Source: a bacterium
GTDB taxonomy: Bacteria > Oederibacteriota > JAJYGY01
Assembly (NCBI GenBank): GCA_021790555.1
Contig: JAJYGY010000071.1
Span: 1-27,363 of the forward strand
Direction: 5' to 3'
Length of the DNA: 27,363 nt
Part shown: in pieces, positions 23,778-27,363 of the stretch
Numbering within the stretch: the stretch's first letter is position 1
Layout of the letters: each line of letters starts with the position of its first letter
Program-made: the position numbers and the translations under genes
The notes under the pieces: generated by a model
What the model was told of the DNA's origin: nothing
Seen by the model: only the letters and a program-made list of their open reading frames with translations
Databases searched by the model: none

Positions 23778-24497
23778 ATGCCGAACCTTTCCCGAAAAGC
23801 CCTGGTGGTCATCCCCACCTACAACGAACGTGGAAACATCGCCGGCCTGGTGCCCCAGGTGCTGGCCCGCGACCGGCGCCTCGAGGTGCTGGTCGTGGAC
23901 GACGCCTCGCCCGACGGAACCGGCGACGAGGCCGAGCGCCTCCGGCGGCGTTTCCCCGGCCGGGTCCACGTGCTCCACCGCCGGGGCAAGGGCGGGCTGG
24001 GCAGCGCCTATGTGGAGGGCTTCGGCTGGGGCCTGAAACGCGGATACGGCCTGCTGCTGCAGATGGACGCGGACTGGTCCCACGACCCCAAGTACCTGCC
24101 GGATTTTCTGAAGGCCCTTCAGACCGCCGACGTGGTGGTGGGCACCCGCTACCAGGGAGGCCGGGTGAGCGTGGTCAACTGGCCCCTCTCGCGGCTGTTC
24201 CTTTCCACCGGCGCCAGCCTCTACGTGCGCCTGGTCACCGGCCTGCCGCTCTCCGACTGCACCGGGGGCTTCAAGGCCTTCCGCCGCCGGGCCCTGGAAT
24301 CCATCGGCCTGGACAAGGTCCGCTCGGACGGCTATTCCTTCCAGATAGAGATGAACTACAAGGCCCACCGGCGCGGCTTCCGCTTCGCCGAGGTCCCCAT
24401 CATCTTCATCGACCGCACCTCCGGAAGCAGCAAGATGAGCCCCCGCATCGTGCGCGAGGCCATCTGGCGGGTCTGGGCCCTGCGGCTGGGGATATAG
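23778..24497 (+). CDS. Polyprenol monophosphomannose synthase (Ppm1/DPM1-like GT2)
   Basis: VIPTYNERGNI, VDDASPDGTG, GKGGLGSAY, QMDADWSHDP, DCTGGFK, GYSFQIEM, RTSGSSKMS. AAGGAG precedes ATG 23778. Confidence 0.9.
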   Translation: MPNLSRKALVVIPTYNERGNIAGLVPQVLARDRRLEVLVVDDASPDGTGDEAERLRRRFPGRVHVLHRRGKGGLGSAYVEGFGWGLKRGYGLLLQMDADWSHDPKYLPDFLKALQTADVVVGTRYQGGRVSVVNWPLSRLFLSTGASLYVRLVTGLPLSDCTGGFKAFRRRALESIGLDKVRSDGYSFQIEMNYKAHRRGFRFAEVPIIFIDRTSGSSKMSPRIVREAIWRVWALRLGI

Positions 24498-24581
24498 GGG
24501 AATTCCGGGGGTCCTGGGGCGGACGCCGCCCCCTCGGGCCCAGTCGAAGGGCCGGGACTCCGGGACTTTCGGGACAAACCC

Positions 24582-26162
24582 ATGGACCATCCTCGCCTCA
24601 TCGCCGCCCTCCTGGCCGCGGCCCTCTGCCTTCCCTGGCGCGCCCTGCGCGCCGGGTCCGAAAGCGTGGGCACCACCGCCGCCGCCTTCCTGAAGCTGGG
24701 CTCGGGCGCCCGTTCGGCGGCCCTGGGGGACGCCGTGGTGGCGCTGGCGGACGACGCCAGCGGCCTTTCCTTCAACCCCGCCGGCATGTCGCAGATGCTT
24801 CAGGGGGAGGTCCAGGGCACCCACGTGCAGTGGTTCCAGGGCCTCACCTACGAAAGCCTCAACGGGGTCTTCCCGCTGGGCAGCCTGGGCGCGGTGGGCT
24901 CCAGCCTGGACGCCCTGGTGACGCCCCCCATGGAGCGCACCATCCAGGTGGCCCAGACCTCCGATCCCTCGCGCAACTACGTGGGTCTGGACACCTTCAG
25001 CCCCTTCGACCTGGAAGCCGCCTTCTTCTATTCCCAGGCCCTGGCGCCCCAGCTGCTGGGAGGGGCCGGTTTCAAGGTGCTCAACCAGGACCTGGCCGGT
25101 CAGGACGCCTTCAGCGTGGCCTTCGACTTCGGCGCCATCCTGCGCACGCCCCTGGCCGGGCTTCAGGCCGGCCTGGCCCTGCAGAACCTGGGCACGCCGG
25201 TCAAGCTCCAGGACCAGGCCTTCTCCCTGCCCACCCTGCTGCGCGCCGGCCTGTCCCAGTCCCTTTTCCGGGACCGGGTCCACGCCCTGGCCGAGGTCGA
25301 CCTGCCTTTCGACAACAGCCCGGTCCTGGCCCTGGGCCTGGAGGCCGAGCTGGCCGGCACCTTTTACCCGCGCGTGGGCTGGCGCGAGGACGGCCTTTTC
25401 AACCCCTGGTCCGCGGGCCTGGGGGTGGACCTGAGCCCCTGGCGCGTGGACCTTTCGGTGACGCCCCTGGGCGACCTGGGCCTGACCAGCCGGGCCTCCT
25501 TGAGCTACCTTTTCGGCGGCCCCTCGGCCTGGCTGGCATCGGACCGGCCGGCCCTGTCGTCGCTTTCTCCGGATTCGCCGGCGGTGATGCGGGTGATGGC
25601 CACCGCGCCCGACAAGGTGGGCGCCTGGGCCCTGTACCTCTACGACGCGCGCTCCCGCATCGTCCGGAGCCTCCAGGGCCACGGGCCCCCGCCGCGCGAG
25701 CTTTCCTGGAACGGCGCGCTTTCCACCGGGCTTCCGGCCCCCGAGGGGACCTACAAGGCCGTGCTGTCGCTGCGCTACGCCGAAGGGGGGGTGGTGTATT
25801 CCCCGCCCCTGGCCCTGCGGGTGGACAACCGCGCCCCCCGGCTGGCCTTCCAGGCCAGGCCGGATTCGCTGGCCCCGGGCGGCGGCACGGTCTACGTGCC
25901 GGCCTACTTCACCCCGCGCGCCCTCAACGGCGTCGCCTGCGCCGAATGGAAGCTGAAGGTGCTGGACGCTTCCGGCAGGACCTTCCGCACGCTCGAGGGC
26001 GGGGGCGGGCTGCCCGACGTCATCGCCTGGGACGGCCGGGGCGACGGCGGCCAGGAGTACGTGTCGGACAGGGACTACACCTTCGTCTTCAGCGCCACCG
26101 ACGTGCTGGGCCGCCGGGGCCAGGCCCCGCCCCTGACGCTGAGGGCCGTCTTCAGGCAGTGA
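24582..26162 (+). CDS. PorV/PorQ-family beta-barrel (paralog 3) fused to two FlgD-Ig-like modules
   Basis: AAFLKLGSGARSAALG...NPAGM, QWFQG; barrel ends PLGDLGLTSRASLSYLF (25514); then WNG...G.PAPEGTY and IAWDGRGDGG..Y..F motifs. Confidence 0.8.
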   Translation: MDHPRLIAALLAAALCLPWRALRAGSESVGTTAAAFLKLGSGARSAALGDAVVALADDASGLSFNPAGMSQMLQGEVQGTHVQWFQGLTYESLNGVFPLGSLGAVGSSLDALVTPPMERTIQVAQTSDPSRNYVGLDTFSPFDLEAAFFYSQALAPQLLGGAGFKVLNQDLAGQDAFSVAFDFGAILRTPLAGLQAGLALQNLGTPVKLQDQAFSLPTLLRAGLSQSLFRDRVHALAEVDLPFDNSPVLALGLEAELAGTFYPRVGWREDGLFNPWSAGLGVDLSPWRVDLSVTPLGDLGLTSRASLSYLFGGPSAWLASDRPALSSLSPDSPAVMRVMATAPDKVGAWALYLYDARSRIVRSLQGHGPPPRELSWNGALSTGLPAPEGTYKAVLSLRYAEGGVVYSPPLALRVDNRAPRLAFQARPDSLAPGGGTVYVPAYFTPRALNGVACAEWKLKVLDASGRTFRTLEGGGGLPDVIAWDGRGDGGQEYVSDRDYTFVFSATDVLGRRGQAPPLTLRAVFRQ

Positions 26163-26184
26163 CCGCATTCCAAAAGGAGGCAGC

Positions 26185-26541
26185 ATGATCCGCAGACTTT
26201 CCGATCTCGTCCCCCAGGCCGGCGAAAACCTGCGCGGGGGCAGGGGCAGGGGCCATTCCCAGGTGTTCTTCCAGCGCGGCGAGTTCTCCACCCCGCTCAC
26301 CGCCTTCAACGTGCTCACCCTGGATCCGGGCGCCTCGGTGGGCCGGCACCAGCACGTCGGCTCCGAGGAGGTCTACTGGGTGCTGGAAGGCACCGGGCTG
26401 GCCGAGGACGACGACCGCGGGGTGGAGTTGAAGGTGGGCGACGCCCTGCTCACCGGCGACGGACACTGGCATTCCATCCAAAACCCCGGGCCCGGACCCC
26501 TCAGGATCCTGACGGTGCTGTCCGAAAAATCCAGGCCCTGA
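26185..26541 (+). CDS. Cupin domain protein
   Basis: [21 protein letters not shown] and GDALLT..G.WHSI.N cupin motifs. RBS AAGGAGG. Confidence 0.88.
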
Positions 26542-26561
26542 ACCCCAGGAAAGGAGATCCC

Positions 26562-27011
26562 TTGGAAACCATCCGAGTGCAGGTGCAAAGGTTGAATCCC
26601 TCCGGCCCGGAGCTGCCCGCCTACGCCACGCCCGGCAGCGCCGGCATGGACCTGCGGGCCGCCATCGACAAGGCCTGGACCCTGGCCCCGGGCGGACGCC
26701 GGCTGATCCCCACGGGCCTGGCCCTGGCCATTCCCGAGGGTTTCGAGGCCCAGGTGCGCCCGCGCAGCGGCCTGGCCCTGAAGCATGGCGTGACGGTGCT
26801 CAACAGCCCGGGCACCATCGACAGCGACTACCGCGGCGAGGTCGGCGTCATCCTGGCCAACCTGGGAGGCGAAGATTTCGTGGTGCAGCCCGGGGACCGC
26901 GTGGCCCAGCTGGTCTTCTCGCCCGTGGCCCGCGCCCAGTGGGAGGCCAGGGAAGGCCTGGACGCGACGACGCGCCAGGCCGGAGGGTTCGGCCACACGG
27001 GCCGGGGCTGA
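26562..27011 (+). CDS. dut: dUTP diphosphatase
   Basis: [48 protein letters not shown] precedes TTG. Confidence 0.95.
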
Positions 27012-27060
27012 TTCTAATTTATTTGTTAGTTTCATTTTTGACACATAGCGTTTTTGCCAC

Positions 27061-27069
27061 TGTGGATAA
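27061..27069 (-). promoter_or_regulatory. Consensus DnaA box (single)
   Basis: TGTGGATAA is the reverse complement of TTATCCACA. Confidence 0.45.
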
Positions 27070-27142
27070 CTTGCGCCAAAAGGCGGACCCGGCCGCCATA
27101 ATTTCTGAAATTCATATCCTTCAAACAAAACGGAATTTCATA

Positions 27143-27170
27143 TTGACAATATAAACAAAATACCTATACT
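27143..27170 (+). promoter_or_regulatory. Strong sigma70-type promoter for the small ORF
   Basis: TTGACA (27143-27148), 16 nt, TATACT (27165-27170), with AT-rich sequence upstream. Confidence 0.75.
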
Positions 27171-27226
27171 ACGTATTGCGGTGTTTGAAAGAACACACAC
27201 ATCATCTTAGGGAGGGGGGGATTTCA

Positions 27227-27268
27227 TTGGCGACCAAGAAAAAGGCCAAGAAGAAGAAGAAGAAATAA
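27227..27268 (+). CDS. 13-aa lysine-rich small protein MATKKKAKKKKKK
   Basis: AGGGAGGGGGGG RBS (27209-27220), 6-nt spacer, TTG start, 9 Lys codons, TAA at 27266-27268; bracketed by a promoter and a terminator. Confidence 0.7.
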   Translation: MATKKKAKKKKKK

Positions 27269-27293
27269 CGCATTAAAATTCACCGATGTCATC

Positions 27294-27333
27294 AAAGCTA
27301 TGCCCCGTTGTGAAACGGGGCATAGCTTTTTTT
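27294..27333 (+). terminator. Intrinsic terminator
   Basis: Perfect 16-bp stem AAAGCTATGCCCCGTT / AACGGGGCATAGCTTT, GTGA (GNRA) loop, T7 tract at 27327-27333. Confidence 0.9.
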
Positions 27334-27363
27334 ATGCCTTTTTAAAATAAAACCTAGCAGATT

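Follow-up and report, generated by a model that had tools for sequence, protein, structure and literature searches.

The window analysed here, which is one contig in its full length (27,363 nt) from a 2.5-Mb MAG of 76% completeness and 68% GC, carries at its end a stand-alone micro-gene that is very probably real and translated, with the lysine-rich peptide MATKKKAKKKKKK as its predicted product. The anatomy of this micro-gene, its conservation among relatives, a coding-type pattern of substitution and the presence of RNA from an orthologue in RNA libraries were directly observed. The locus combines its own promoter, a strong Shine-Dalgarno (SD) sequence, a reading frame of no more than about 25 codons with at least 50% lysine and no acidic residue, its own terminator and conservation across species. 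As for function, the reading that we prefer, tentatively and with a likelihood somewhat short of even, is that the micro-gene encodes a nucleic-acid-binding oligocation acting by charge.

Genomic location of the micro-gene

The gene dut, assigned by a dUTPase Pfam match, occupies positions 26562-27011 of the window. Past dut the GC content drops from about 70% to 36-38%, and the micro-gene sits in this AT-rich end of the contig, which stops 34 nt past the stem of the micro-gene terminator. The gene order in relatives is dut, micro-gene, glmU, the last being recognised by its NTP-transferase domain and hexapeptide repeats. In the relatives examined, glmU has its own TTGACA-type promoter, located 3′ of the micro-gene terminator.

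Further upstream, positions 24582-26162 (+) of the window encode a 526-aa protein whose N-terminal part matches UPF0164 (Treponema-type) and whose C-terminal part is a FlgD-Ig-like domain; in G002, the genome of a relative, dut is likewise preceded by a FlgD-Ig protein. Elsewhere in the same MAG (G000), two further short basic ORFs with good SD sequences, MARSRKKSKVVKKKR and MKRQFSRKRYRQVTRKGK, were noted at C156:4408 (+) and C135:1903 (-).

Architecture of the cassette

All elements of the cassette lie on the plus strand. Transcription would start from a sigma-70-type promoter, TTGACA-16-TATACT, at 27143-27170 (-35 at 27143-27148, -10 at 27165-27170). This element, identified by its match to the consensus, agrees at 11 of 12 consensus positions and is the sole promoter-like match in 24000-27363, where shuffled sequences give 0.3. 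Both hexamers are near-invariant across the 25 loci described below. An A/T-tract region resembling an UP element abuts the -35 hexamer at 27117-27142 and was recognised from the alignment. In most orthologues this region, directly 5′ of the -35 hexamer, takes the form of an inverted repeat, CAAAAC-N3-GTTTTG, which is degenerate in the window; the repeat could be an UP element or a regulator site.

The 5′ leader begins with a hairpin of 6 bp closed by a GAAA loop (GTGTTT-GAAA-GAACAC, 27181-27196), which is defined by both folding and covariation, 4 of its 6 pairs being preserved through two-sided changes (RNAalifold, 22 sequences). The hairpin is probably an mRNA-stabilising 5′ stem-loop. It is followed by a conserved single-stranded motif, ACACAUCAUCUUAG, at 27197-27210; the form ACACAU(C/U)AU(C/A)UAG is common to the window locus and to the MAT-type genes of families f6 and f10 (see below). 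An extended G-rich SD sequence, GGGAGGGGGGGAU, occupies 27210-27222, with its G-rich tract at 27210-27220 placed 6 nt before the start codon and GGGGG(G/U)GAU conserved among the loci. The SD sequence is predicted to be complementary to the usual 3′ end of 16S rRNA.

The ORF itself starts with TTG and spans 27227-27268, encoding MATKKKAKKKKKK followed by TAA. It reads TTG GCG ACC, then nine lysine codons (seven AAG and two AAA) together with one GCC, then the stop. Downstream, a single-stranded 3′ UTR motif is found at 27277-27293, with a core, GAUGUCAUC, at 27285-27293. No locus departs from this core sequence, and this holds also for loci recovered by BLAST rather than by pattern. The cassette closes with an intrinsic terminator at 27294-27336 (stem-loop 27294-27329), which was assigned by folding and alignment and has a 16-bp stem, a GUGA loop of the GNRA class and a U-run. 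RNAalifold (n=22) finds 15 consensus pairs in the stem, one of them covarying, and the loop is either GUGA or, in a sister family, GAAA, both being GNRA loops.

The whole transcript is predicted to fold with -47.3 kcal/mol, a z-score of -4.4 versus shuffled sequences. In the RNAalifold consensus of 22 sequences there are two helices only, the 5′ hairpin and the terminator, and no pairing is predicted for the SD sequence, the ORF or the 3′ spacer. As predicted from these comparisons, the RNA layout is that of a stable, efficiently translated mRNA and not that of a switch. The original prediction had described a complete stand-alone transcription unit here, and the unit is indeed self-contained with strong signals, its whole cassette being conserved in 25 distinct loci. 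The individual elements on which that description rested, namely the promoter, the GAAA-loop hairpin, a strong ribosome-binding site 6 nt 5′ of TTG, 9 lysines among 13 codons followed by TAA, and the 16-bp terminator with its GNRA loop, were all recovered at the positions listed above. The cassette as a whole is well beyond chance.

A run of one codon followed by an intrinsic terminator 5′ of a same-strand gene is also the layout of the leader-peptide attenuators trpL, hisL and thrL. By analogy, the micro-gene could be a lysine-sensing leader peptide, with ribosome stalling at the lysine codons setting the read-through of the terminator into glmU. We regard this as very improbable, although the likeness of a short, one-codon-rich ORF before a terminator is genuine. 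No conserved antiterminator pairing was found by RNAalifold (n=22), with which the single-sequence fold agrees, and the stop codon lies 25 nt ahead of the terminator stem in the window and 25-35 nt ahead of it among orthologues. The next gene has an independent promoter past the terminator in the relatives examined, glmU is unconnected to lysine supply, and members of the wider family bring their own terminators and are found in unrelated contexts. An attenuator of glmU was therefore rejected for want of an antiterminator and of a metabolic tie to lysine, and in view of the separate glmU promoter.

Conservation and comparative evidence for translation

A search of related genomes for the combination of ribosome-binding site, start codon, short lysine-rich ORF and terminator, as the original prediction had proposed, recovered the cassette repeatedly. 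BLAST of the AT-rich stretch against relatives identified the SD sequence, the ORF and the terminator in 6 of 6 genomes of the same family and order, and a pattern search with the 3′ motif added 6 FCPU426 MAG contigs and 21 metagenome contigs. After deduplication the set holds 25 distinct cassettes with 19 distinct ORF sequences, all from candidate division FCPU426 and located between dut and glmU.

None of the 25 loci has an interrupted frame. The predicted peptides read MATKK... and have 13-18 residues with 8-10 lysines, so that the lysine count stays steady while the ORF length varies. The spacing between the SD sequence and the start codon (ATG, TTG or GTG) is constant, and the stop codon, TAA except for TAG in two loci, comes directly after the final lysine run. 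Frame-breaking indels beside an intact RNA structure, which the original prediction had named as an observation that would speak for a pure small RNA, were seen in none of the 25 loci. In-frame changes of length are, by themselves, weak evidence for translation, because slippage of (AAG)n tracts adds or removes three nucleotides at a time. More informative are the seven sense codons that can be aligned unambiguously (codons 2-5 and the last three), in which third positions vary in 5 of 7 cases and first or second positions in 0 of 14. The anticipated synonymous variation is thus present, the anchored codons differing at third positions only; the corresponding Fisher test gives p about 0.001, a value that overstates the significance since the sequences are related. 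In one pair, G003 and contig L076, 7 of 45 nt (15%) differ while the encoded peptide is identical. Judged on these comparisons, the substitution pattern is that of a translated gene, despite the kinship of the sequences and the slippage of AAG.

The preference for AAG over AAA, which had been taken as a further sign of translation, does not hold up as such. AAG makes up 90% of lysine codons genome-wide in this 68% GC genome, so seven AAG among nine lysine codons are uninformative on translation. Runs of A in the ORFs never exceed 6 nt, and they are not significantly fewer than expected. A separate observation concerns alanine: GCT accounts for 46% of alanine codons in the 19 distinct orthologue ORFs versus about 2% in the long genes of the MAG; the window copy has GCG and GCC. 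The GCT in the micro-genes of the relatives may be a high-expression codon choice.

The opposite strand was considered as well. In the window, an ATG located in ATGACATC, the reverse complement of the 3′ motif, opens a minus-strand frame that reads MTSVNFNALFLLLLLGLFLGRQ; such a frame would allow a hydrophobic poly-Leu/Phe type I toxin, with the plus-strand RNA as its antisense antitoxin. Across the 25 loci, however, this frame alternates between poly-Leu, poly-Phe and poly-Ser and its length ranges from 5 to more than 69 aa, and neither an SD sequence nor a promoter is found on the minus strand. We thus consider the toxin most improbable, and as a conserved coding frame the type I toxin-antitoxin system is refuted, given that both frame and length of the minus-strand ORF are unconserved.

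RNA evidence from an orthologous locus

None of the words sampled from the stretch occur in the RNA runs that belong to the source study of the window, on mine drainage, and the evidence for transcription therefore comes from an orthologue. This orthologue, L063, was seen in four metagenomes and is present in many soil and peat metatranscriptomes. It is covered from the SD sequence to the 3′ UTR by contigs of four runs from four studies; the runs were picked for containing the stretch, and the data are assembled contigs rather than reads. Runs X5 and X7 each yield a contig that matches L063 over 9385-9502/9503 with at most 1 mismatch; this interval includes the SD sequence, the full ORF and 20 nt of the 3′ UTR, and depth is zero across dut and glmU. 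The matching contig in runs X4 and X6 stems from a related strain and extends into the promoter region, which is not transcribed; these two runs may therefore contain carried-over DNA or read-through RNA. Taken together, the data are suggestive of a short, comparatively abundant transcript of the orthologue. The check by RNA sequencing that accompanied the original prediction thus has suggestive support for the orthologue in soil and peat, but not for the stretch in its own study.

Both ends are common to the RNA contigs of two independent studies: one falls within the 5′ hairpin loop, the other just 5′ of GAUGUCAUC. These ends, L063 9385 and 9502/9503, correspond to about 27190 and 27284 in the window, and one of the contigs carries Illumina adapters on both sides. 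A distinct, processed 118-nt RNA would account for the shared ends, but so would an artefact of library preparation or assembly. It was also observed that in the peat run X7 the interval L063 9433-9470 is hit by another highly covered mRNA, that of a lysine-rich protein from a different organism, with an AGGAGA SD sequence, a start reading MAAK... and a contig depth of 87.

A strongly conserved 3′ tail

The most conserved segment of the locus is the tail, consisting of GAUGUCAUC, the terminator hairpin and the U-run. Mean pairwise identity is 0.97 in this 3′ tail, compared to 0.84 at the start of the ORF, 0.75 in the promoter and 0.31 immediately downstream. Other lineages of the poly-Lys family each have a frozen tail of their own. 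This conservation of non-coding sequence is what a purely peptide-centred view, including the polycation model, fails to explain, and it keeps a dual-function RNA viable as an alternative. The RNA would then be the main or a second functional product, with the tail serving as a riboregulator or protein-binding module and the ORF translated as well. The tail might even be freed by cleavage just 5′ of GAUGUCAUC, immediately before which the RNA contigs of two independent studies stop, although such common contig ends may be artefacts as noted above.

Several observations weigh against the RNA as the functional product, and we hold it to be unlikely. A seed-target search of the own genome placed motif-complementary sites at or below chance. 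Hfq (PF17209) is missing from 5 genomes, two of them 100% complete, in which control profiles matched. No Rfam family matched the tail at its gathering score, the best hit reaching 27.6 bits (gathering 43) and PyrR 24.4 bits (gathering 54). Moreover, the ORF is under coding-type constraint, and an RNA function alone is insufficient to account for the locus. Compared to Hfq-dependent sRNAs derived from 3′ UTRs, the tail has the invariant single-stranded seed, the terminator and the U-tail, but Hfq and complementary targets were not found. A similar arrangement of a short ORF with a conserved RNA segment adjacent to the terminator is known from the dual-function RNAs SgrS/SgrT, RNAIII/hld and SR1/SR1P and from 3′UTR-derived sRNAs; the likeness is one of sequence layout, and the present case differs in that no Hfq was found in the 5 genomes.

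A wider family of poly-Lys micro-genes in FCPU426

Stand-alone poly-Lys ORFs of 12-55 aa were found in at least 30 genomes from 8 of 23 families in a 99-genome set of the phylum. The family was traced from weak BLAST hits and an N-terminal codon pattern, and the counts are a lower bound. These ORFs have strong SD sequences and, mostly, terminators, and their genomic contexts are unrelated. Their composition is restricted to K, A, T, V and P, rarely R or G, with no D or E.

Two paralogue types can be distinguished by their starts, MAT... and MAV..., and genomes of f6 and f10 have both. The MAT type resembles the window locus, with a hairpin followed by ACACAU.AU.UAG and an SD sequence of the GGGGGAU type. 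The MAV/MPV type (L010, L044, L046, L048 and L107-L118; families f6, f8 and f10) encodes 16-55 aa, with the long forms made of K/A/V repeats. Its SD sequence is AAAGGAGGUGA, its 3′ UTR has a conserved CACC-N4-GGUG hairpin, and its terminator is of the AAAACCGGGGG type.

Profile searches were made with paralogues of 28 and 35 aa, the 13-aa peptide being too short to scan. Neither paralogue matched any Pfam or NCBIfam family up to E = 10, where HMMER composition filters may mask matches. A PDB sequence search with the 35-aa paralogue returned no similar chain even at E = 10, and 0 of 3 paralogues of 35-55 aa were present in a collection of 15 billion proteins. A full-text literature search found no account of such poly-Lys micro-genes or peptides. 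ESM Atlas neighbours, which we treat as a lead only, are unnamed lysine-rich proteins of several phyla, a few of them with PF07382, and include clusters in which PF07382 is found in 21% of members.

Proposed function as an encoded polycation

On the reading that we prefer, the near-consensus promoter would drive a monocistronic RNA of about 160 nt, whose ends are probably shielded by the 5′ hairpin and the 16-bp terminator. The unstructured, purine-rich middle of this RNA would present the very long SD sequence and the 13-codon ORF to the ribosome. Taken together, the expression signals are predicted to be geared to maximal peptide output. Translation would yield MATKKKAKKKKKK, from which the Met preceding Ala is expected to be removed, leaving a mature 12-mer whose net charge would be about +9 to +10. 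Within the family only charge and composition are conserved and length varies between 12 and 55 aa, which points to charge rather than shape. The peptide would therefore work with no fixed fold, as a presumably abundant oligocation that binds, neutralises or compacts nucleic-acid polyanions. The target may chiefly be nucleoid DNA, and perhaps RNA too, in a manner comparable to a free histone-H1 tail or a protamine. The polycationic micro-protein of the original prediction is in this respect partly supported: the comparative data favour its translation, but the nucleoid and ribosome functions suggested for it are still conjectural.

The proposed charge is within an effective range, given that oligolysines of charge +8 to +10 condense DNA efficiently (PMC2790876). 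Those compounds, like polyamines, resemble the present peptide in charge but are synthetic peptides or metabolites, whereas the poly-Lys peptide is predicted to be the ribosomal product of a dedicated gene. A role as polyamine substitute, which had also been suggested, gained no support. Spermidine synthase (PF01564) is found in 98 of 99 genomes of the phylum, which implies that an oligolysine peptide would be an addition and not a replacement. The speA model gave sub-threshold matches only, probably to other PLP decarboxylases.

Among known proteins, the closest in character are the Hc2/H1-like proteins (PF07382), the C-terminal tails of histone H1 and the protamines, all of which are low-complexity polycations rich in Lys and Ala (also Val and Pro) with a repeat number that varies between lineages. 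The poly-Lys family shares with the Hc2/H1-like proteins the Lys/Ala-rich repeats of variable number and the absence of acidic residues, and the FCPU426 paralogues of 28-55 aa look like short versions of them. The likeness is one of composition, however, and the 28- and 35-aa paralogues have no Pfam match. The window peptide is 4- to 15-fold shorter than the described Hc2/H1-like proteins.

The main peptide-level rival of the polycation model is a ribosome-bound micro-protein, held in a pocket or on the surface of the rRNA in stoichiometric or sub-stoichiometric amounts, as are bS22, bL37, bTHX and eL41. Tiny, unannotated, very basic and highly transcribed genes have proved ribosomal before, and the very strong expression signals of the micro-gene would suit such a role. 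The Borrelia bS22, for example, is encoded by a non-annotated gene of 93 nt with 61% Lys+Arg and occupies a pocket of the 30S subunit formed by h2, h27, h44 and h45 (PMC10618245). The canonical bS22 genes of relatives have the same stand-alone layout as the micro-gene. Two of these were identified in genomes of the same order, L120 (G003:C47:71106-71204, minus) and L121 (G002:C31:11246-11344, minus), each encoding 33 aa with its own SD sequence and terminator. With PF08213 they score 24.5 bits in G003, over the cut-off, and 21.5 bits in G002, and they are probably unannotated. No bS22 gene was seen in the window's own incomplete MAG.

These same genes show that two relatives already encode canonical bS22 elsewhere. 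The micro-gene shares with bS22 and its analogues eL41 and mS38 (24-33 aa) the small size, the usual lack of annotation, the strong basicity, the high transcription and the stand-alone arrangement. It differs in that bS22 has a defined 33-residue pattern of His, Arg, Leu and Gly (PF08213), whereas the poly-Lys peptide has 13-18 residues of Lys, Ala and Thr and a drifting length. Identity with bS22 was consequently rejected, based on the separate bS22 genes in two relatives and on an ORF without the His/Arg/Leu/Gly pattern. For a ribosomal role more generally, the low-complexity K/A sequences of 12-55 aa in the family are a poor fit to a fixed rRNA pocket, and no PDB chain resembles the 35-aa paralogue at E = 10. 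We consider the ribosome-bound role rather unlikely.

A DnaA box linked to the locus

A perfect DnaA box, TGTGGATAA, is located at 27061-27069 of the window (no strand assigned), 5′ of the micro-gene promoter. Among the 25 distinct loci of the order, drawn from the window, L004-L009 and L059-L079, 21 have a perfect box (TGTGGATAA/TTATCCACA) no more than about 300 nt from the cassette, and only 7 perfect boxes occur in the whole 2.5-Mb MAG. In some loci the box is 5′ of the promoter, in others it comes just past the terminator and before the glmU promoter. Near the poly-Lys genes of other families no DnaA box was found, so the box may belong to dut or to glmU. As a general companion of poly-Lys genes it was rejected, being specific to the dut-X-glmU locus of this order.

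The tail and the box could be brought together with the peptide in a two-product unit. An oligolysine polycation and a recognised or released 3′ tail of about 50 nt would cooperate, the tail acting as a riboregulator or as the address or nucleation site of the polycation. A connection to DnaA in this order would let the unit couple the charge balance of nucleoid or ribosome to the replication state, and the unit would represent an undescribed and widespread class of micro-gene. We offer this as a speculative scheme that is, as a whole, distinctly unlikely to hold.

Biological significance

If the peptide is made, the micro-gene would be among the shortest conserved free-standing protein-coding genes known, and bacteria would possess directly encoded oligolysine polycations in addition to polyamines and histone-like proteins. 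For experiments, the locus offers concrete handles in its frozen RNA tail and in the DnaA box linked to it. Gene finders overlook the poly-Lys family as a whole, and protein databases miss it too. Annotation may thus be blind to a recurrent, probably abundant part of the charge economy of the cell, involving nucleoid, ribosome and polyphosphate.
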